A stretch of 61,283 bases of DNA, the filler included, from Candidatus Desantisbacteria bacterium CG1_02_49_89 (GTDB taxonomy: Bacteria > Desantisbacteria > UBA1551), in the NCBI GenBank assembly GCA_001871075.1. It is 4 parts of 4 records of this genome, joined end to end, with 100 filler letters (N's around TTAATTAATTAA, not from the genome) between each part and the next. Parts side by side here need not be neighbours in the genome. Positions count along the whole stretch, not along the records: positions 1 to 20,314 come from MNUP01000061.1; 3 more parts are not named here. The stretch is one strand, 5' to 3'. The notes below the pieces were generated by a model. It did not search any database. It was not told the origin of the DNA and worked only from the letters and a program-made list of their open reading frames with translations. A program made the position numbers and the translations under genes. Shown in pieces: positions 9,013 through 55,000 of this stretch; positions within the stretch are counted from its first letter, which is position 1; each line of letters starts with the position of its first letter.

Positions 9013-10164
9013 ATGAGCGATAAGCGTAAGTTGAAGATAATGATGGTGGCTGGCGAGATTTCCGGTGACCTGCAGGGCGGGATGCTCGCGCAGGCCATAA
9101 AAGAACTTGCCCCGAGCGCTGTCCTGTTCGGCATGGGCGGCCAGAAAATGAAGGACGCCGGGGTTGACATCCGTTTTGACGTGCTGCGTCACGCGAGCAT
9201 AGGTATATGGGAGAACGCTAAAAATTATTTCCTGACAGTCCGCGCGGTATTTAACCGGATGAAAAAAGTTGTTGAAGAGGAAAAGCCCTCCTGCATAGTT
9301 CTCATAGATTACCAGGGATTCAATCTTGAGCTCGCGAAGTTCGCGAAAAATAAGGGCATCCGGCTCGTTTATTATATACCTCCCCAGTACTGGGCGTGGC
9401 GCACCGGGCAGGCAAAATACGTTTCCCGGCTTATAGACCAGATCATAGCGATACTGCCTGAAGAGGAGGAGGCATACAGGAAAGCAGGAGCGAACGTCAC
9501 TTTCGTCGGAAGCTCGCTTCTTGAAAGGGTCAGGGTTCCGGGGACGCAGGAAGAGCTGAGGGACACGCTGAGCGTTAAAAAGGGATCGAAACTCATCGCT
9601 TTGCTTCCGGGAAGCAGGTTTTCAGAAATTAGAAGGCTTCTTCCGGTGATACTTGGAGCGGCCAGTATCCTGAAGGGAAGGGTTCCTGAGATAGAATTTG
9701 TGATGCCGGTTGCAGCACCTTATCTTAAACTAGAGATAGAAACGCAGGTTAAGAGGTCCGGCCTGCCTATAAAAATAACAGACGGCGATGCGTATGAAGT
9801 ACTGAAAGCCAGTGATATTTCAATTATCTGTTCAGGCCTTGCCACGCTTGAAGCAGCGCTGCTTGGGACCCCGATGGTCGTGGTATACAGGGTGTCTTTC
9901 CTGACATCCCTGATAATGAGGATGTTGATACGGATCCCGAATGTCAGCCCGCCGAATATCCTTGCAGGCAGGGCGATAGTTCCCGAACTGTTGCAGGAAA
10001 GGGCAAACGCCCGGAACGTGGCTGACACCGCCTGCAACATAATGATGGATCCCGATGCAATAAGCGAAATGAAGAAAAATCTTTCCGGAGCGGTTTCAAG
10101 GCTGGGAGGCCCGGGTGCGTCCCGCCGCGCCGCGGAGATAGTGCTGAAAGTGGCAGGCCTTTAG
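9013..10164 (+). CDS. lpxB: lipid-A-disaccharide synthase
   Basis: VAGEISGD, IDYQGFN, YYIPPQYWAWR, LLPGSRFSE, SGLATLE, PELLQ. Confidence 0.95.
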   Translation: MSDKRKLKIMMVAGEISGDLQGGMLAQAIKELAPSAVLFGMGGQKMKDAGVDIRFDVLRHASIGIWENAKNYFLTVRAVFNRMKKVVEEEKPSCIVLIDYQGFNLELAKFAKNKGIRLVYYIPPQYWAWRTGQAKYVSRLIDQIIAILPEEEEAYRKAGANVTFVGSSLLERVRVPGTQEELRDTLSVKKGSKLIALLPGSRFSEIRRLLPVILGAASILKGRVPEIEFVMPVAAPYLKLEIETQVKRSGLPIKITDGDAYEVLKASDISIICSGLATLEAALLGTPMVVVYRVSFLTSLIMRMLIRIPNVSPPNILAGRAIVPELLQERANARNVADTACNIMMDPDAISEMKKNLSGAVSRLGGPGASRRAAEIVLKVAGL

Positions 10165-10199
10165 GAATAATTGCAGGAATCTAGATTGGAGGCATAAAA

Positions 10200-10679
10200 A
10201 TGTCAGAACTTATTAAAAAAGCAATTGACCTTGCTGTTGAGGCGCACAAGGGGCAGAAAGATTCCCGTGGGGAGGAATATATAGAGCATCCTTTTGAGGT
10301 TATGCGCAGGATGATGAGGGATAAAAGGCCTGAGATCGAGCTTGCGGTCGCGGTGATGCATGATATACTTGAGGACACGCCCAGGACCGAAAAAGACATA
10401 TACAATGCGGTAAGCGCTTGCTGCGCGGACAAGGCCTTGCTGGTTACCGAGGCTTTGAAAGCTATTACAAAGGCAAAAAATGAAGACTACGATGAATATC
10501 TTGAAAGGCTTAAAGGGAATGTTATCGCGAGGATGGTCAAGCTGTATGACCTTGAACATAACATAGAGCGGAATCTGAAGACCTTCAAGGAAGATAAAAA
10601 AAGCGCGCAGCGCCTCCTGAAATATATCAGGGCGTATGACTATCTTGGCGGCACAAATCAACCTTATACCACCTCGTAG
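10200..10679 (+). CDS. HD-domain hydrolase (small alarmone hydrolase/Mesh1-like)
   Basis: AHKGQ..GEEYIEHP, MHDILED, VKLYDLEHN. Confidence 0.8.
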   Translation: MSELIKKAIDLAVEAHKGQKDSRGEEYIEHPFEVMRRMMRDKRPEIELAVAVMHDILEDTPRTEKDIYNAVSACCADKALLVTEALKAITKAKNEDYDEYLERLKGNVIARMVKLYDLEHNIERNLKTFKEDKKSAQRLLKYIRAYDYLGGTNQPYTTS

Positions 10680-10723
10680 GTGGAACAGGCATTTTTAAAA
10701 AAACAATAAAAAGTATTTAAAAC

Positions 10724-10752
10724 TTGACAAATTGAATAAAATGTGTTATAAT
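10724..10752 (+). promoter_or_regulatory. sigma70 promoter of the leader-metY operon
   Basis: TTGACA-17bp-TATAAT with extended -10 TG. Confidence 0.85.
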
Positions 10753-10763
10753 GTTTCTAATAT

Positions 10764-10785
10764 AACAATTCCTATAGGAATTGTT
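10764..10785. promoter_or_regulatory. 22-bp perfect palindromic operator AACAATTCCTATAGGAATTGTT
   Basis: perfect inverted repeat just after the -10; second copy at 18167-18186 in the same promoter context. Confidence 0.8.
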
Positions 10786-10816
10786 GACATTAAGATTTTA
10801 GCAAAATTATGATTTA

Positions 10817-10848
10817 ACCCCCCGCGGCTTGCCGCGGGGTAATTCAAA
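10817..10848. repeat. CCCCGCGGCTTGCCGCGGGG palindromic element (also at about 29309-29343 and 54117-54154)
   Basis: three copies with shared flank GTAATTCAAA or TTTGAATTAC. Confidence 0.8.
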
Positions 10849-10879
10849 TATCTGAACGAAGGTAGAGGGGAGCATCGCA

Positions 10880-11026
10880 GTGAAGAAGCAACTGTTTGAG
10901 AACACAGACATTTTGAATTCTAACGAAGCTCATCATCCGCGCAATAGCGCAGAATCTTGTATGTGCTGCGGAATTGCTATGTGCAACTGTCTGCGGATAA
11001 TGGGCATTGCGGAGGTGTTGTCATAA
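10880..11026 (+). CDS. putative Cys/Met-rich attenuator leader peptide, 48 aa (MKKQLFENTDILNSNEAHHPRNSAESCMCCGIAMCNCLRIMGIAEVLS)
   Basis: translated by hand; GTG start after a GAGGGGAG purine tract; 5 Cys and 3 Met within codons 27-41; followed by a terminator. Confidence 0.75.
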   Translation: MKKQLFENTDILNSNEAHHPRNSAESCMCCGIAMCNCLRIMGIAEVLS

Positions 11027-11068
11027 TATAATAAGGAAAGAAATCCGGAAAAGACTTATGGAAACCCT

Positions 11069-11105
11069 AAGCCCATTATCAGAAGACTGATGGTGGGCTT
11101 TTTTT
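11069..11105 (+). terminator. intrinsic terminator (attenuator) between the leader and metY
   Basis: 14-bp stem AAGCCCATTATCAG-aaga-CTGATGGTGGGCTT with two G-U pairs, followed by a T tract. Confidence 0.85.
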
Positions 11106-11158
11106 GTTTTTAAAAGGAGGTGATAATAGCTTAAAAATCTGTGTAATCGTTTTTTTGA

Positions 11159-12502
<1,344 letters not shown>

Positions 12503-12566
12503 AAAAAATCCCCCTTATTCCCCCTTTAAAAAGGGGGATGGGGGGATTGGGTTATGGGGAGAAATA

Positions 12567-13718
12567 ATGACGGATAAAAAAGGTATTGGGACTGTTGAAA
12601 CGCAATATTATACGTTTGCGCATCCGCCGGGTTCATTTATTCTTGAAAACAGTGGAAGGCTTGGTTTGGTTACGCTCGCGTACGAGACGTACGGCAGGCT
12701 GAACAACGAAAGGTCAAACGCCGTGCTCATAGCGCATGCCCTGTCCGGAGACGCCCACGCAGCGGGTTTTCACAAAGGTGACGAGAATCCGGGCTGGTGG
12801 GATAATATGATAGGGCCGGGCAGGGCATTTGATACCGATAAATATTTCGTTATCTGCTCGAATGTCATCGGTGGATGCAGGGGGTCAACCGGCCCGTCTT
12901 CCATAGATCCAGAGACACGCAGGCCGTACGGCCTTGATTTTCCGTCCATAACCATAACGGATATGGTAAATGCCCAGAGACTTCTTATTGATCATCTGGG
13001 CATTGAAAAACTTCTTTCCGCGGCAGGCGGTTCAATGGGCGGAATGCAGGTTCTGGAATGGATGGTTTCCTATCCGGGGCGGATCAGAAGCGCCATACCC
13101 ATTTCCACGGCAGCAAGGCACTCGCCGCAGCAGATTGCTTTTAATGAAGTCGGCAGGCAGGCTATTATGGCTGACGCCAACTGGAAAAACGGTTATTATT
13201 ACGGGAAAGAACCGCCTGACAGGGGGCTTGCTGTGGCGAGAATGGTGGGGCACATCACTTTTATGAGCGATAGATCAATGGCTGAGAAATTCGGCAGGCA
13301 GTTAAAGAACAGGAAAGAATTCTCCATGTTTGGGGCTGATTTTGAAGTGGAGGGATACCTGCAATACCGCGGCAGCAGTTTCGTAAAAAGGTTTGACGCC
13401 AATTCCTATCTTTACATCACCAAGGCAATGGATAATTACGATGCGTCCAGGGGCAGGGAACTCAGCGAGGTTTTTAAGGGCATTGACGCGAGAGTCCTGG
13501 TCCTGGCTTTCAAATCGGACTGGCTTTATCCGGCATACCAGTCCCTGGAAATTGTCAAGGCCTGCAAGCTTGCAGGGCTGGAAGCCAGTTACTGCGAGAC
13601 AGGTTCCGCATACGGTCACGATGCCTTCCTGTTAGAGACGGAAGAGGAAACGCATCTTATAAAACATTTCCTGGAGAAGGTTTTTCTCCGGAGGGTGAAT
13701 GGAGAATATGAGATATAA
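12567..13718 (+). CDS. metX: homoserine O-acetyltransferase
   Basis: HALSGDAH, GWWDNMIGPG, GGSMGGMQ nucleophile elbow, RFDANSY, YGHDAFL. Confidence 0.93.
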   Translation: MTDKKGIGTVETQYYTFAHPPGSFILENSGRLGLVTLAYETYGRLNNERSNAVLIAHALSGDAHAAGFHKGDENPGWWDNMIGPGRAFDTDKYFVICSNVIGGCRGSTGPSSIDPETRRPYGLDFPSITITDMVNAQRLLIDHLGIEKLLSAAGGSMGGMQVLEWMVSYPGRIRSAIPISTAARHSPQQIAFNEVGRQAIMADANWKNGYYYGKEPPDRGLAVARMVGHITFMSDRSMAEKFGRQLKNRKEFSMFGADFEVEGYLQYRGSSFVKRFDANSYLYITKAMDNYDASRGRELSEVFKGIDARVLVLAFKSDWLYPAYQSLEIVKACKLAGLEASYCETGSAYGHDAFLLETEEETHLIKHFLEKVFLRRVNGEYEI

Positions 13719-14340
13719 TTCTGCCGGGCCAGAGCAAAAAATAATTTTTGAGCTTGTAAAACCCGGCTCGTCTGTTCTGGACCTCGGATGCGGGGATGGA
13801 GAATTACTGTCCCTGCTGGCCAGAGAAAAAAAAGTTAAAGGTCAGGGGATAGAAATAAACGAGAAGTCGATACATGAATGCGTGGCAAAGGGGCTTAATG
13901 TATTCCACGGCGACATAGACTCGGGGCTGTCCGATTACCGGGATAAGTCCTTTGACTACGTGATACTCAACCACAGCCTGCAGGAGGCCAAAAAGCCGGA
14001 GGTCGTTTTAAGGGAAGCCCTGCGGGCAGGCAGGAAGGCCATAGTGAGTTTCCCGAACTTCGCCCATTACTCGGCGCGCCTGCAGATATTTTTCAGGGGA
14101 AAAACTCCCGTTACCCCTTCTCTGCCCCACAGATGGTATGACACGCCCAATCTTCATTTCCTGAGCATTTCAGATTTTGCCGAATATTGCCGGGAGAGGA
14201 ACATCATGATAGAAAAATCCTTGTTTATCGGAAAGAACAAAGCTGTATATATATTCCCGAACCTGTTTGCGCTGGCAGGAATATTTCTTATCGCAAACGG
14301 AAAACCGGGAAAGTTTCTGATGAAAAAGGAGGATGTATGA
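13699..14340 (+). CDS. metW: methionine biosynthesis protein MetW
   Basis: VLDLGCGDG, VSFPNFAH, WYDTPNLHF; directly after metX; start may be 13708. Confidence 0.9.
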   Translation: MENMRYNSAGPEQKIIFELVKPGSSVLDLGCGDGELLSLLAREKKVKGQGIEINEKSIHECVAKGLNVFHGDIDSGLSDYRDKSFDYVILNHSLQEAKKPEVVLREALRAGRKAIVSFPNFAHYSARLQIFFRGKTPVTPSLPHRWYDTPNLHFLSISDFAEYCRERNIMIEKSLFIGKNKAVYIFPNLFALAGIFLIANGKPGKFLMKKEDV

Positions 14341-15479
14341 ATGAGTATAGGTATCTTGAACTCAAGGCAGAATTGCTTGCCGAAGGCATCCAGGCATCGG
14401 AAGAAGCCCTGAGTGGAGTGGGCAATGAATATAAGGAGCAGAATCATGGTCTGTTTGGATGGGATTTTGAGGACCATGTCGGAACGAGTCTCCCGGATGA
14501 TTTCATGCTTCCGGATGGAACGATTGTCCAGTTCAGGAAAAACAGCCGCTCGCCGTATAAAGTTTCCGGGAAAGGAAACAACCTGACCCTGTCAAAAGGA
14601 GAGGAGGAAATATGCAGAGCCGAATGGCTGCCGAGACCCGCATATTATAATAAGGAAACCGCGAACAACAACAAGATGGTGAAGATCGGGCAGGTAGGGG
14701 GCGGGGACTGCCTGTTCTTCTGCTATCAGAATTACTGCAGCCATTTTGCCGGGAACGAAGAATGCCTTTTCTGCAACCTTGTCTCAACCTTAAAGACCTA
14801 TGACTCTGTGCTAAAAAAGAAGGATACCGAGGATATAGGGGAAGTCGCGGGAGAAGCTTTTTCCGAGGGCAAAGTAAAGCACGTCTTGCTCACCGGCGGA
14901 TGCTTCAATCATCAGAAAGAGATAGAGCTTGTTGCAGATATTATGAAATCAATACGGAAAAAGACGGGTTTCAGCCGCGTCCCGGGGACAATCCTTCCTT
15001 CTCCCGCGAAAGGCGAAGACGAAATAAAGAAATATTATGATACAGGAATTCAAGCGATCGGTTTCAGCATGGAGATATGGGATGAAAAATTATACCAGGC
15101 AATCTGCCCGGGAAAATCCAAAAATACAAGCCGCGGGACTTTTGTCAATTCAATAGAAACAGCGGTTAAGATTTTCGGGGCAGGCAACGTATACGGAGTG
15201 TTCGTTATGGGATTGGAACCGAAGAGAACATTCCTGGAGGGTGTCAGGGAAATCACAAATATGGGGGCAAACGTTGTTCCGTTCGTATGGTCGCCCAATC
15301 CGGGCTCAAAACTCGAAGGTCACAGGGCTCCGGCAGGCGGGTGGTTTGTTGAAACAACGCTGGAAGCCTCAGAAATAGTATGTAACGCAGGAGTCCCGTC
15401 AGGAATTGAGAACCATTGCTATAAATGCGACGGGAACTCCCTGCTCCACGATGCACTGCGCTTAAAAGGAATTGAGTAA
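14337..15479 (+). CDS. radical SAM protein with a non-canonical Cx8Cx2C motif
   Basis: YCSHFAGNEECLFC, LLTGG, ICPGK, MGLEP, C-terminal CYKC; ATG 14337 overlaps the metW stop. Confidence 0.8.
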   Translation: MNEYRYLELKAELLAEGIQASEEALSGVGNEYKEQNHGLFGWDFEDHVGTSLPDDFMLPDGTIVQFRKNSRSPYKVSGKGNNLTLSKGEEEICRAEWLPRPAYYNKETANNNKMVKIGQVGGGDCLFFCYQNYCSHFAGNEECLFCNLVSTLKTYDSVLKKKDTEDIGEVAGEAFSEGKVKHVLLTGGCFNHQKEIELVADIMKSIRKKTGFSRVPGTILPSPAKGEDEIKKYYDTGIQAIGFSMEIWDEKLYQAICPGKSKNTSRGTFVNSIETAVKIFGAGNVYGVFVMGLEPKRTFLEGVREITNMGANVVPFVWSPNPGSKLEGHRAPAGGWFVETTLEASEIVCNAGVPSGIENHCYKCDGNSLLHDALRLKGIE

Positions 15480-15585: not shown

Positions 15586-16953
15586 ATGGGCCGGGAATTT
15601 AGCAACGTGCTTGAGACTATCGGCAGGACGCCGCTTATCAGGTTAAACAAAATGACGAAAGAGATCAAATCAAAGATATACGTCAAGGCTGAATCGTTCA
15701 ACCCGGGCGGAAGCGTAAAAGACAGAATAGGCCTTGCCATGATAGAAGCAGCTGAAAAAGAAGGACTTGTAAAACCCGGAGGTACGATTGTCGAGGCTAC
15801 AGCAGGCAATACCGGCGTTGGTCTTGCGCTTGCGACTGCAATCAAGGGTTACAGGACGATATTTGTCATACCGGATAAAATGAGCGAGGACAAGGTCGTC
15901 CTGCTGCGGGCATACGGGGCAGAAGTTGTCATTACTCCGACTTCCGTGCCTCCGGATTCTCCGCAGAGCTATAACGGGGTGGCTGACAGGCTTGCCAGGG
16001 AAATACCCGGGGCATTCAGGCCCAACCAGTTTGCCAATCCGAACAACCCCCTTGCCCATTATCAGACGACCGGCCCGGAGATCTGGAAAGACTCAGGCGG
16101 CAGGGTTGAGGTGTTTGTGGCGGGAATGGGCACAGGCGGCACAATTTCGGGAATAGCAAAATATCTAAAAGAGAAAAAATCAGGCATAATCATAGTCGGG
16201 GCAGACCCTGAGGGCTCAATACTTTCAGGGGACAGCCCCAGGTCGTATAAGGTGGAGGGAATCGGGGAGGATTTCATACCCAGGACGTTTGACCGCCAGA
16301 TAGTTGACGAAATGATACGAGTCAGCGACAAGGAATCGTTTAATACAGCCAGGCGGCTTGCCAGGGAAGAGGGCATTCTTGCAGGCGGCTCGTCCGGAAC
16401 AGCCGTTGCAGCCGCCCTGAAATTCGCAATGCGGCTGGAAAAACCGAAATACATAGTTGCGCTCCTGCCTGACACCGGCAGAAATTACCTGACGAAGATA
16501 TTCTCAGACTCCTGGATGCAGGAGAACGGCTTCTGGGAAGGCAGGGACATAAGGCCGTTAAAGGTCGGGGAAATCCTTGCGAAGAAGAAAGATTTCCCGC
16601 GGATGATTTCTGTCAGCCCGAAGGATATTCTAAGCAAGGCGGTAAGGCTGATGCATAAATACGGCATTTCGCAGATTCCTGTAGTTGACAGGGGAAAATC
16701 CGTGGGCAGCTTAGACGAGGCGTCCCTGATGAAACTCCTGCACGACGGAATAGATTTCAGCAAGCAGAATATTTCTGCGGTTATGGGCAGGCCCCTGCCG
16801 GTGCTTGATGAGGAAACAGACGTATCAGAGGCATACAGAATACTCCTGTCAGGCACGACCGGCTTTATTGTTGCCAGAAAAGGCGTGTCTGCCGGGGTTA
16901 TCACCAGGACGGATTTAATAAATTACTGGATCATAAAAAAGGAGGGCGGATGA
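15586..16953 (+). CDS. cbs: cystathionine beta-synthase with C-terminal CBS domains
   Basis: NPGGSVKDRIG, EATAGNTG, GMGTGGT, YKVEGIG, PDTGRNYL, CBS pair (ISQIPVV). Confidence 0.9.
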   Translation: MGREFSNVLETIGRTPLIRLNKMTKEIKSKIYVKAESFNPGGSVKDRIGLAMIEAAEKEGLVKPGGTIVEATAGNTGVGLALATAIKGYRTIFVIPDKMSEDKVVLLRAYGAEVVITPTSVPPDSPQSYNGVADRLAREIPGAFRPNQFANPNNPLAHYQTTGPEIWKDSGGRVEVFVAGMGTGGTISGIAKYLKEKKSGIIIVGADPEGSILSGDSPRSYKVEGIGEDFIPRTFDRQIVDEMIRVSDKESFNTARRLAREEGILAGGSSGTAVAAALKFAMRLEKPKYIVALLPDTGRNYLTKIFSDSWMQENGFWEGRDIRPLKVGEILAKKKDFPRMISVSPKDILSKAVRLMHKYGISQIPVVDRGKSVGSLDEASLMKLLHDGIDFSKQNISAVMGRPLPVLDEETDVSEAYRILLSGTTGFIVARKGVSAGVITRTDLINYWIIKKEGG

Positions 16954-18086
16954 GATTTGAGACAAGGGCGATACATTCTGGCCAGGACCCGGATTCGGCA
17001 ACCGGAGCGGTCATCGTGCCTGTTTACCAGACATCCACATACAGGCAGGATGCGATAGGAAAGCACAAGGGCTATGAGTATTCGCGCACGGGAAATCCGA
17101 CGCGAAAGGCGCTTGAGGACGCCCTTGCCTCTCTGGAAGGCGGAAAGCACGGGCTTGCCTTTGCTTCTGGGCTTGCCGCAACGACGGCCGTGTTCAGCAT
17201 TTTAAAAAAAGGAGACCACGTTATAGCCGGGGATGACATTTACGGCGGGACCTACAGGCTGCTTGAAAAGGTATTCAGGCGCTGGGGCCTAGAAGTCACC
17301 TACGCGGACGCGGACGACGGGGACGCCTTTCAGGGTGCGGTCCAGGAGAATACAAAACTCATCTGGATTGAAACGCCCACTAATCCGCTTCTGAAAATCG
17401 TTGATGTTAAAAAGCTTTCCGAGATAACAAAAAAGGAAAATATAATTCTTGCGGTGGACAACACGTTTGCAACCCCTTATTTTCAAAGACCTCTTGAGCT
17501 TGGGGCTGATATCGTTGTCCACAGCACGACAAAATACCTGTCAGGGCACAGCGATATAATAGGCGGCGCCGCAATAACTTCAAGGCAGGATATATACATA
17601 GATTTGAAGTTTTACCAGAATGCCGCGGGAGCGGTTCCGGGCCCCTGGGATTCCTGGCTTGCTCTCCGCGGAATTAAAACCCTTTCCGTCAGGATGAGAG
17701 AACATGAAGGCAATGCCTTATATTTAGCCGGTTACCTTTCGGGGCATCCACGTGTAGAGAGGGTCTATTATCCCGGGCTGCCAGGGCACAGCCGGCATAA
17801 GTTAGCAAAAGAACAGATGAGCGGTTTCGGCGGGATGATAAGCTTTGAACTGAAAGGCGGTTTTCCCGAAGTTGAAAAATTCGTCTCCAGGCTGAAAATA
17901 TTTTTACTTGCAGAAAGCCTGGGCGGAGTGGAATCACTTGTTTGCTATCCTCCAAAGATGACGCACAGTTCTTTTTCCGCGGAAGAGAGGGCGAAAAGAG
18001 GGATCAAGGATAATTTAATAAGGCTTTCCGTGGGCATAGAGCATAAAGATGACCTCAAAGACGATTTAGAGCAGGCGCTGGGGTGA
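16950..18086 (+). CDS. cystathionine gamma-lyase/gamma-synthase
   Basis: YEYSRTGNPTR, ETPTNP, HSTTKYLSGHSD, LAESLGGVESL; coupled to cbs, consistent with reverse transsulfuration. Confidence 0.9.
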   Translation: MRFETRAIHSGQDPDSATGAVIVPVYQTSTYRQDAIGKHKGYEYSRTGNPTRKALEDALASLEGGKHGLAFASGLAATTAVFSILKKGDHVIAGDDIYGGTYRLLEKVFRRWGLEVTYADADDGDAFQGAVQENTKLIWIETPTNPLLKIVDVKKLSEITKKENIILAVDNTFATPYFQRPLELGADIVVHSTTKYLSGHSDIIGGAAITSRQDIYIDLKFYQNAAGAVPGPWDSWLALRGIKTLSVRMREHEGNALYLAGYLSGHPRVERVYYPGLPGHSRHKLAKEQMSGFGGMISFELKGGFPEVEKFVSRLKIFLLAESLGGVESLVCYPPKMTHSSFSAEERAKRGIKDNLIRLSVGIEHKDDLKDDLEQALG

Positions 18087-18128: not shown

Positions 18129-18186
18129 TTGACAAATCGGAAAAGGTGTGTTATAATGTTATTATGACAATTCCTATAGGAATAGT
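18129..18186 (+). promoter_or_regulatory. sigma70 promoter plus second copy of the ATTCCTATAGGAAT operator
   Basis: TTGACA(18129)-17bp-TATAAT(18152) with TG; ACAATTCCTATAGGAATAGT at 18167-18186. Confidence 0.85.
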
Positions 18187-18218
18187 TGACAATAATAAAA
18201 CAAAGGAGGAAAGAGCTT

Positions 18219-19009
18219 ATGGCAGAGAAAGTAAGTTTTAGTCCAGTTGGTGAAAAGGAAGTTACGCGAGCAATAGCAGAATCTTTTTTGAAGCAATTTC
18301 AGGATTATGCTGACAGCGACGTAATCATTGTAGGGGCAGGTCCGTCCGGGTTAATGGCCGGAAGAGATCTGGCGAGTAAGAAAATTAAAGTTTTAATAAT
18401 AGAGAGAAATAATTATCTCGGAGGAGGTTTCTGGATAGGTGGTTATCTGATGAACAAGGTTACGGTGAGGTCCCCGGGAGAAAAAGTCCTTGAAGAACTG
18501 GGCGTGCCGTTTGAAAAGGCGGTAGAGGGATTATTCGTAGCAGACGGTCACATGCTTGTTCAAAACTGATTGCCGCTGCCTGCGATGCAGGCGTGAAGTT
18601 TGCAAATATGACTATTTTTGACGATGTAATTTTGAGAGAAAACAACAAAGTTGGCGGCGTGGTAATTAATTGGACGTCCGTATCTGCGCTTCCCAGAGAG
18701 ATTACCTGCGTGGACCCCGTTGGTCTGGAATCGAAACTGGTCATCGATGCCACGGGCCACGATGCAGTGGTGGTGAAAAAACTCGAAGCAAGAGGTCTAA
18801 CTAAAACAAAGGGTTTTGGAGCAATGTGGGTGGAAAAATCAGAAGACCTGCTGGTGGAACACACAGGGGAAGTACATCCCGGGCTTGTCGTTGCAGGGAT
18901 GGCTGTAACCACTACTTACGGTTTGCCGCGAATGGGTCCAACTTTCGGAGCGATGCTTTTGTCCGGCAGAAAAGCGGCAGAGTCTGCGACGCAGATGTTA
19001 AAAAAATGA
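18219..19009 (+). pseudogene. thi4: Thi4-type thiazole synthase split by a 1-bp deletion at about 18549 (true pseudogene or sequencing error)
   Basis: IVGAGPSGL, GGGFWIGG, then a frame switch; restoring GGT C[C]A CAT gives [14 protein letters not shown]; second half has [31 protein letters not shown]. Confidence 0.85.
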
Positions 19010-20314: not shown

Positions 20315-20414
20315 NNNNNNNNNNNNNNNNNNNNNNNNNNNNNNNNNNNNNNNNNNNNTTAATTAATTAANNNNNNNNNNNNNNNNNNNNNNNNNNNNNN
20401 NNNNNNNNNNNNNN
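20315..20414. other. artificial contig-join spacer
   Basis: 44 N + TTAATTAATTAA + 44 N. Confidence 0.98.
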
Positions 20415-37803: not shown

Positions 37804-37903
37804 NNNNNNNNNNNNNNNNNNNNNNNNNNNNNNNNNNNNNNNNNNNNTTAATTAATTAANNNNNNNNNNNNNNNNNNNNNNNNNNNNNNNNNNNNNNNNN
37901 NNN
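37804..37903. other. artificial contig-join spacer
   Basis: N run with central TTAATTAATTAA. Confidence 0.98.
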
Positions 37904-54900: not shown

Positions 54901-55000
54901 NNNNNNNNNNNNNNNNNNNNNNNNNNNNNNNNNNNNNNNNNNNNTTAATTAATTAANNNNNNNNNNNNNNNNNNNNNNNNNNNNNNNNNNNNNNNNNNNN
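54901..55000. other. artificial contig-join spacer
   Basis: N run with central TTAATTAATTAA. Confidence 0.98.

Follow-up and report, generated by a model that had tools for sequence, protein, structure and literature searches.

Genes for methionine (Met) biosynthesis are usually placed under S-adenosylmethionine (SAM) riboswitches, T-boxes or protein regulators. Which of these, or what else, controls the sulfur-amino-acid operon metY-metX-metW-rSAM-cbs-cgl of Candidatus Desantisbacteria bacterium CG1_02_49_89 (assembly GCA_001871075.1), in which no SAM-I riboswitch match was found anywhere in the genome? The source genome (150 contigs, 93.5% complete) belongs to a rare uncultured lineage and derives from groundwater/aquifer samples. 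We analysed a stretch of 61,283 nucleotides (nt) of this genome, hereafter the window, of which positions 1-20314 correspond to contig C69 and positions 20315-20414, 37804-37903 and 54901-55000 are runs of N. Read directly from the sequence, a promoter, a Shine-Dalgarno (SD) sequence, an upstream open reading frame (uORF), a terminator, an antiterminator and a protector helix all lie ahead of the six genes. This leader is probably a ribosome-mediated leader-peptide transcription attenuator of the operon, reading the supply of cysteine (Cys) and Met; from the sequence, we predict that the uORF is translated, at which codons ribosomes would stall, that transcription would terminate at around 11105 and that read-through would respond to either amino acid. 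No riboswitch or T-box of Rfam matched positions 10000-12000 at E <= 10. A PyrG_leader match (28.9 bits, cut-off 65) was rejected, as it was below threshold and covered the terminator hairpin only.

A Cys/Met-rich leader ORF ahead of metY

The first-pass annotation of the window had placed a 48-codon ORF between a consensus promoter and metY, with five Cys and three Met codons in 15 codons (10958-11002) and no others inside, and both the sequence and the ORF list bear this out. TATAAT serves as the -10 box of the metY promoter, and transcription is expected to start near 10759. The uORF has a 5' untranslated region (UTR) of ~120 nt, and 168 nt separate its end from metY. Its internal Cys and Met codons are confined to codons 27-41, the first cluster being Cys27-Met28-Cys29-Cys30 (10958-10969). 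When all six frames of the genome (2.48 Mb, 150 contigs) were scanned, the Cys+Met density of the uORF, eight per 15 residues, was the maximum: 122 short ORFs carried at least five Cys+Met per 15 residues, and the runners-up, both without a terminator, were two ORFs scoring 7. The 48-residue peptide matched only itself among 5.8 billion proteins and hit no Pfam or NCBIfam family. Because the peptide has no protein homologue, relatives of the leader were sought via metY loci.

The predicted RNA switch

The uORF is followed by a stem of 14 pairs, six of them G-C, with a 4-nt loop (11069-11100; -21 to -23 kcal/mol) and a T tract running to 11111, which is the sole strong terminator-like site on the + strand within 10100-12600. 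A 14-bp terminator with a T tract, an exact 10-nt antiterminator exclusive with it and a 9/10 protector helix had all been claimed in the first-pass annotation, and each was recovered, the latter two in longer form. GATAATGGGC (10996-11005) and GCCCATTATC (11071-11080) are reverse complements without a mismatch, and the antiterminator pairing can be lengthened to 22 nt at 82% complementarity (10984-11005 with 11071-11092). Likewise, CATCATCCGC (10931-10940) is complementary at 9/10 positions to GCGGATAATG (10993-11002), which becomes 13 nt at 85% when extended; the protector helix of 10928-10940 with 10993-11005 comprises 12 pairs out of 13.

The calculated duplex energies were -20.1 to -22.7 kcal/mol for the pairing of segments 1 and 2 (1:2), -23.9 kcal/mol for 2:3 and -22.7 kcal/mol for 3:4. 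In the full-leader ensemble, 1:2 and 3:4 prevailed (pair probabilities of ~0.8-0.96), with 2:3 at 0.04. The minimum free energy (MFE) structure switched to 2:3 when segment 4 was left out, or when folding was limited to the RNA downstream of a ribosome that has stalled at codons 27-30. This behaviour in silico is the logic of a trp/his-type attenuator, and the earlier assignment of 1:2/2:3/3:4 logic is thus supported by both the duplex energies and the folding with and without segment 4. The whole leader folded at -62.9 kcal/mol (z = -3.76), and none of 200 dinucleotide shuffles was as stable. The uORF region paired with the 5' arm of the terminator at -17.7 kcal/mol (z = -3.5), a value reached by 0 of 200 dinucleotide shuffles. 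A hairpin in the antiterminator loop, drawn from the MFE structures, could be a spacer or pause element.

Recurrence of Met/Cys leaders before metY

We surveyed 160 metY loci, 80 from species-representative genomes and 80 from metagenomes. For the enrichment test, we took the 145 loci whose upstream sequence spanned 250 nt or more and scored any stop-free 15-codon window with at least six Cys+Met within 400 nt upstream of the gene. Such windows occurred at 24 of the 145 loci in the sense frames and at none (0/145) in the antisense frames. Among the Cys/Met-rich uORFs examined, 24 of 26 were followed by a strong hairpin and a T run before metY, the exceptions being L111 and L136. A covariance model (R1) was built from 24 aligned leaders of 23 loci with the window left out, and at E <= 1e-10 it matched 30 loci out of the 160. 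Of the matched loci, seven lay outside the training set (L031, L046, L116, L120, L134, L186 and L157, the last cut by a contig end), and three weaker non-training matches were also obtained (L035, L130 and L038). Clear Met/Cys-rich uORFs were present in seven of these ten (L031, L046, L035, L116, L120, L134 and L186); of the remainder, L130 had a weak uORF, L038 had none and L157 was cut. The expectation, raised in the first-pass annotation, that Cys/Met-rich uORFs with a covarying antiterminator and terminator precede metY orthologs is thus matched by the enrichment (24/145 versus 0/145) and by the cognate pairing described below.

The carriers of the leader, as labelled, are metagenome-assembled genomes (MAGs) of Deltaproteobacteria, Desulfomonilia, Syntrophales and Thermodesulfobacteriota, a Kiritimatiellae MAG, Candidatus Solincola and an Omnitrophota MAG. 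No archaeal metY locus gave an R1 match at E <= 0.1, and the lone archaeal-labelled match (E = 0.86) was regarded as noise. No leader was found in a first set of comparison genomes from other phyla, and Rfam gave no match in seven Met/Cys leaders or in 13 metY loci without a leader.

In the R1-family loci, metY either comes right after the leader or is separated from it by one or two small genes. The downstream content of 21 such loci included a metX-like gene in 17, metW in 15, a cysK-like gene (PALP) directly after metY in ten and a radical-SAM gene in one (L055); cbs-cgl occurred in the operons of L186, L035 and the window. The operons are of two types, metY-(cysK-like)-metX-metW or metY-cbs-cgl. 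Since operons of this family make homocysteine and cysteine, their gene content fits a leader that holds both kinds of codon.

Some loci of the survey had features of their own. Two full Met/Cys leaders, each with a terminator, stand in tandem before metY in a deltaproteobacterial MAG (L055:2480-2900). By a hand count uncorrected for kinship, leaders with a cysK-like gene directly after metY had a mean of ~3.0 Cys codons (n=10) versus ~1.9 (n=10) in those without it. In the Omnitrophota loci (L035:1759-2902 and L205), the leader is separated from metY by a small DUF2292 gene and a DUF3034 gene, and a DUF3034 gene follows metY in a Desulfomonilia MAG (L037:5096-6067); these two families may belong to sulfur-amino-acid metabolism. 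The metagenome loci L111 (141-323) and L136 (2298-2500), whose metY genes are among the nearest to that of the window (88% and 84%, respectively, over the best segment), have in common a different conserved upstream stretch with neither a T-run terminator nor an Rfam match, which may be another leader type.

Relatives of the window leader and covariation

From start codon through T tract, the leader of locus L035 (Omnitrophota) aligned to the window leader at 71% identity, and two more Omnitrophota genomes, out of 65 searched, carried full-length homologues (L205, 85%; L206, 79%). The GTG of the window uORF aligned to the ATG of the three Omnitrophota leader ORFs. In a search of the whole Desantisbacteria genome with an nhmmer profile of the three, the top match was the leader itself (10929-11107, E = 9.1e-4), the next best having E = 0.14. 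The three also scored 27-42 bits with R1. The window leader therefore appears to be a divergent homologue that is tied to the R1 family through the Omnitrophota group, its direct link to the family being weak.

In the four-sequence alignment (the window, L035, L205 and L206), 86.4% of cells were paired in the antiterminator versus 20-43% in slid controls, and 95.8% in the terminator, with two compensatory pairs in each. One position varies jointly in segments 2, 3 and 4, being A-T-A in the window and G-C-G in the other three. The register of the protector helix differs among relatives. With 21 leaders that have distinct terminator arms, cognate pairing averaged -15.8 kcal/mol versus -12.0 kcal/mol for non-cognate pairing, a difference attained in 0 of 10,000 permutations, and the window took rank 1 of 21 for cognate antiterminator pairing.

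Codon-level changes in the Omnitrophota trio indicate that selection acts on codon meaning in the Met/Cys core. Four of the nine codons of the core RMVMCCCMR vary and all four changes are synonymous, while 15 of codons 1-25 vary and ten of these change the residue. CATCATCCGC is identical in the window, L035 and L205 though its reading frame differs, which argues for a constraint at the RNA level.

How the switch would work

The consensus promoter (10724-10752), which a repressor bound to an operator probably controls as well, would start transcription, and the 48-codon leader would be translated during its transcription. With ample charged tRNA-Cys and tRNA-Met, the ribosome would reach the stop codon at 11024, segment 1 (10928-10940) would re-pair with segment 2 (10993-11005) behind it, and the free segment 3 would join segment 4 in the terminator (11069-11100 and the T tract), so that the polymerase would stop before metY. 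If Cys or Met were scarce, the ribosome would stall at Cys27-Met28-Cys29-Cys30, its footprint would abut segment 1, block 1:2 and spare segment 2, and, with segment 4 yet to be transcribed, segment 2 would engage segment 3 in a 22-nt pairing (-23.9 kcal/mol) that permits read-through. Judged by the usual size of a ribosome footprint, the first cluster is compatible with read-through, being located 18-29 nt downstream of segment 1 with a gap of 15 nt or more before segment 2. The C-M-C-C cluster (codons 27-30) is thus expected to be the productive stall site. That both amino acids would be sensed, and which of the eight codons would act, is what we infer from this arrangement.

Several observations weigh against this reading, some of which concern the geometry of the leader. 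The regulatory codons as a whole stand between segments 1 and 2, starting with a Cys codon 18 nt downstream of segment 1. Codons 35, 37 and 41 are inside or abut segment 2, a position incompatible with stalling of the antitermination type, so stalls there should favour termination. The stop codon is 19 nt beyond segment 2; a terminating ribosome would therefore not mask the antiterminator, and termination under replete conditions must need 1:2 to re-form. Shortage of Met also limits initiator tRNA, which would lower translation of the leader. Moreover, should a repeat at 11135-11171, between the terminator and metY, act as a promoter or in processing, some metY expression may escape the attenuator.

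Other adverse points concern kinship and statistics. R1 gave the window leader 10.8 bits (E = 0.055, its best match in 61 kb) and nothing at E <= 1 genome-wide. A second covariance model (R2), over-fitted with 59 pairs to the three near-identical Omnitrophota leaders, recovered the terminator part only (E = 0.14) and was set aside, being replaced by the sequence-only nhmmer profile. Most R1 members end the uORF with G-x-G-G-P/L-x-M and a stop a few codons past the antiterminator block; the window has R-I-M-G at that place and then six more codons, so that the family ending is absent. The one other genome of the same phylum that was searched gave no leader match, and a rough scan of the genome revealed no other convincing amino-acid leader attenuator. 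Column shuffles of the four-sequence alignment attained the observed pairing in 71 of 500 cases for the antiterminator and 149 of 500 for the terminator, so covariation among these four sequences alone is not significant. When the terminator arm was paired with the uORF end, only 15 of 35 leaders beat their shuffles at p <= 0.05 (median z of -1.5). Finally, L147, L118, L177 and L050, at ranks 14-17 of 21, showed no cognate antiterminator signal; these may be wired differently.

Alternative explanations

Could the leader peptide report one amino acid only, the other kind of codon being kept as runs of AUG and UGY self-complement for the switch? The leaders do range from near-pure Met (L115, with six Met and one Cys) to Cys-dominated (L040 and L177), the Met/Cys codon run of the main family pairs in the MFE structures with a stretch just past the stop codon and so has a structural role too, and in the window only the C-M-C-C cluster is well placed. 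Nevertheless, (i) almost every listed leader keeps both codon kinds in frame, (ii) the operons make both homocysteine/Met and Cys, and (iii) the synonymous TGT/TGC changes mean that what is conserved is codon meaning rather than the exact RNA sequence. We therefore regard sensing of a single amino acid as unlikely. A switch run by some other input, namely a metabolite- or protein-binding RNA or a general sensor of translation rate to which the Cys/Met bias is secondary, would accommodate the weak direct similarity of the window to the R1 model. It appears improbable, because the Cys/Met enrichment is specific to strand and frame, the changes in the Met/Cys core are synonymous only, Rfam offered nothing at E <= 10 except the sub-threshold PyrG leader on the terminator, and no further conserved structure was found besides the three helices and one variable hairpin.

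The uORF may instead be a chance ORF beside an ordinary terminator, or a dead remnant, with the operon driven from a start downstream of the terminator. A repeat associated with gene starts does lie between the terminator and metY, and a mobile-looking 52-nt repeat is inserted in the 5' UTR. This explanation is distinctly improbable in the face of the genome-extreme composition of the uORF, the exact 10-nt complementarity, the significant energy z-scores and the homologues with the same architecture before metY; besides, no gene between the end of the upstream gene (10679) and the uORF is available for the strong promoter at 10724 to serve. Very improbable indeed is a functional Cys-rich peptide, such as a precursor modified by the radical-SAM protein or a metal binder. 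Its attraction lies in the Cys-rich C-terminal half of the peptide and the presence of a radical-SAM gene in the same operon, but that gene is 3.2 kb off, behind three met genes, and lacks a SPASM match. As the family operons make homocysteine and cysteine and only L055 of 21 loci has a radical-SAM gene, they argue against a radical-SAM precursor. The peptide is also without a homologue in the protein collection searched, its N-terminal half is unconserved with one conserved stretch read in different frames, and its ORF overlaps a covarying RNA switch.

Known systems and significance

Ribosome-mediated attenuation is textbook knowledge for Trp, His, Leu, Thr, Phe and Ile/Val, and the classical attenuators of E. 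coli and Salmonella are trpL, hisL, thrL, leuL and pheL. The window leader has in common with these a short SD-led uORF, codons for the pathway product, the 1:2, 2:3 and 3:4 helices and a terminator before the first gene. Unlike them, it mixes Cys and Met codons in one peptide, places these codons between segments 1 and 2 and not inside segment 1, and belongs to a rare uncultured groundwater lineage and not to a proteobacterium. SAM riboswitches and the Met and Cys T-boxes, which likewise sit in the 5' leader of met genes and act through conditional intrinsic termination, have a different sensor.

The first-pass annotation knew of no characterised mixed Cys+Met attenuator, and our search of openly accessible full texts turned up neither a methionine nor a mixed Met/Cys leader-peptide attenuator. 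None is mentioned in the available part of PMC2965389 either. Poly-Cys leaders had been said to be described in Actinobacteria, which is correct as far as the accessible text of Seliverstov et al. 2005 (PMC1262725) goes: Cys leader peptides without a terminator hairpin were predicted there. The mycobacterial polycysteine uORF attenuators are leaderless and, according to the portion available of Canestrari et al. (bioRxiv 10.1101/834739), act on translation via sequestration of the Shine-Dalgarno sequence; the same portion states that uORF attenuation for cysteine was previously undescribed. As far as these partial texts go, the mycobacterial and actinobacterial leaders resemble that of the window in that Cys codons of a short uORF report the charging of Cys-tRNA to sulfur or cysteine genes, whereas the window differs from such Cys-only leaders in its SD-led uORF, terminator, covarying antiterminator and Met codons. 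In the accessible part of Brewer et al. 2021 (PMC8632094), uORFC-8-2 before cysS of Rhodobacterales is a predicted ribosome-mediated attenuator with in-frame Cys codons, a terminator and a U run; by that description, it is set apart from the window leader by two tandem Cys codons, the lack of Met and control of a tRNA synthetase gene. Leyn et al. 2014 (PMC4239095) describe, in the text available, a conserved RNA element (metXZ) that precedes metX/metZ in beta-proteobacteria and is predicted to form a terminator/antiterminator leader; compared by description only, it differs from the window leader in taxon and in having no leader peptide.

On balance, we lean slightly towards a large and apparently undescribed class of terminator-type Met+Cys attenuators in anaerobes, spread over several phyla, of which the window leader, adding a further phylum, would be a divergent member. 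The proposed class would head direct-sulfhydrylation operons, with metY accompanied by metX/metW, a cysK-like gene or cbs-cgl. The principle, ribosome-mediated attenuation, is known, and the apparent novelty is the specificity for Met plus Cys. If the proposal is true, methionine too has a ribosome-read attenuator, a single peptide integrates two amino acids, and the leader takes the place of the SAM riboswitch, perhaps moving between phyla with metY. The cysteine leaders so far are translational or terminator-less variants, a gap that a terminator-type Met+Cys leader would fill. It would also provide a marker for annotating sulfur-amino-acid regulons in metagenomes, and offer a compact natural two-input sensor for testing stall position against output.

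The downstream operon

The gene order metY-metX-metW-rSAM-cbs-cgl given in the first-pass annotation was confirmed by Pfam and NCBIfam (Table 1). The strand, the spacing and the terminator and promoter scans are the grounds for reading the genes as a single operon: no strong terminator was found on the + strand between 12400 and 18086, and a consensus promoter does not recur until 18129. The operon would make homocysteine (metX and metY) and convert it to cysteine (cbs and cgl). As it would yield both sulfur amino acids, sensing of both end products fits the gene content. The radical-SAM protein matched Radical_SAM only in Pfam, with no SPASM domain, and the overlap of its frame with metW leaves its start codon uncertain. 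A radical-SAM gene within or after the met operon is found both in the window, without SPASM, and at L055:6218-7231, with SPASM.

Table 1. Coordinates of the leader elements, repeats and operon genes in the window.
Feature	Position	Strand	Remarks
Promoter	10724..10752	+	TTGACA, 17-nt spacer, TGTTATAAT, extended -10 (TG); 12/12 sigma-70 consensus matches
Perfect 22-bp palindrome	10764..10785	.	Just 3' of the -10 box; 11+11 nt, 100%
52-nt dispersed repeat, G+C-rich	10797..10848		Inserted in 5' UTR; 9-bp hairpin 10820-10839
SD-like GAGGGGAG	10865..10872	+	7 nt 5' of the uORF GTG
Leader uORF	10880..11026	+	48 codons, GTG start, TAA stop 11024-11026
Segment 1 (protector, anti-antiterminator 5' strand)	10928..10940	+	Extended helix spans 10923-10948
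Regulatory codon block CMCCGIAMCNCLRIM	10958..11002	+	Codons 27-41; 5 Cys + 3 Met in 15 codons
Segment 2 (antiterminator 5' strand)	10984..11005	+	Core 10996-11005; partner is segment 1 or segment 3
Hairpin in antiterminator loop	11012..11068	+	Includes the uORF stop codon; from MFE structures
Segment 3 (terminator 5' arm)	11069..11082	+	Alternative partner is segment 2
Segment 4 (terminator 3' arm)	11087..11100	+	T tract 11099-11111
Two 14-nt direct repeats (AAATCTGTGTAATC)	11135..11171	+	Between terminator and metY ribosome-binding site
metY (O-acetylhomoserine sulfhydrylase / homocysteine synthase)	11195..12502	+	TIGR01326, 656 bits, cut-off 495
metX (homoserine O-acetyltransferase)	12567..13718	+	NF001209, 496 bits, cut-off 331
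metW	13699..14340	+	TIGR02081, 237 bits, cut-off 190
Radical-SAM protein ('variant_rSAM')	14187..15479	+	NF045502, 357 bits, cut-off 125
Cystathionine beta-synthase (PALP + CBS domains)	15586..16953	+	TIGR01137, 549 bits, cut-off 510
Cystathionine gamma-lyase/synthase family enzyme	16950..18086	+	Final gene ahead of the next promoter

A putative second control layer and repeats around the leader

The 22-bp palindrome beside the -10 box is probably the operator of a repressor, which would provide a second, DNA-level control of the operon. Its only other copy in the whole genome (18167-18191) lies behind a near-identical promoter, and this promoter/palindrome copy (18129-18191) heads Thi4-family, DUF6775/DUF7001 and PAPS-reductase-domain genes. 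Because the palindrome recurs with the same promoter, the met operon is probably also repressor-controlled, and the presence of just two copies suggests a small sulfur regulon under one repressor. A CymR/Rrf2 repressor was considered for the palindrome and dropped, as no Rrf2-family gene was found in the genome (93.5% complete). Taken together, the putative operator and the candidate attenuator indicate that homocysteine synthesis and reverse transsulfuration may be co-regulated here at two levels. The Thi4-family gene behind the second palindrome is split into two ORFs (18186-18569 and 18593-19009, covering positions 1-97 and 114-235 of the Pfam profile), which could reflect a frameshift, a stop or an assembly error.

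The 14-nt direct repeats between the terminator and metY belong to a widespread set: ~151 arrays of AAATCTGTGTAATC-like units occur in the genome, often as dimers with 23-nt spacing. An SD sequence, a start codon and an open frame on the same strand follow 58 of the 151 arrays, versus 9 of 151 on the divergent side, and the median distance from array to start codon is 19.5 nt. The copy at 11135-11171 is possibly an extra, lineage-specific promoter, processing or 5'-UTR signal. One metagenome contig (run X21) is without one 23-nt unit at this position.

The 52-nt repeat in the 5' UTR has more than a dozen copies on other contigs at 96-100% identity and looks like a small mobile or target-site repeat. 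No RNA run is listed among the sequencing runs that carry the locus, and four metagenome DNA contig sets leave 10868-11068 uncovered because contigs break at the flanking repeats. Read depth on metagenome contigs is very high over the 52-nt repeat, and on contigs C83 and C75 its halves lie ~130-540 nt apart, as if an insertion had occurred at the hairpin.

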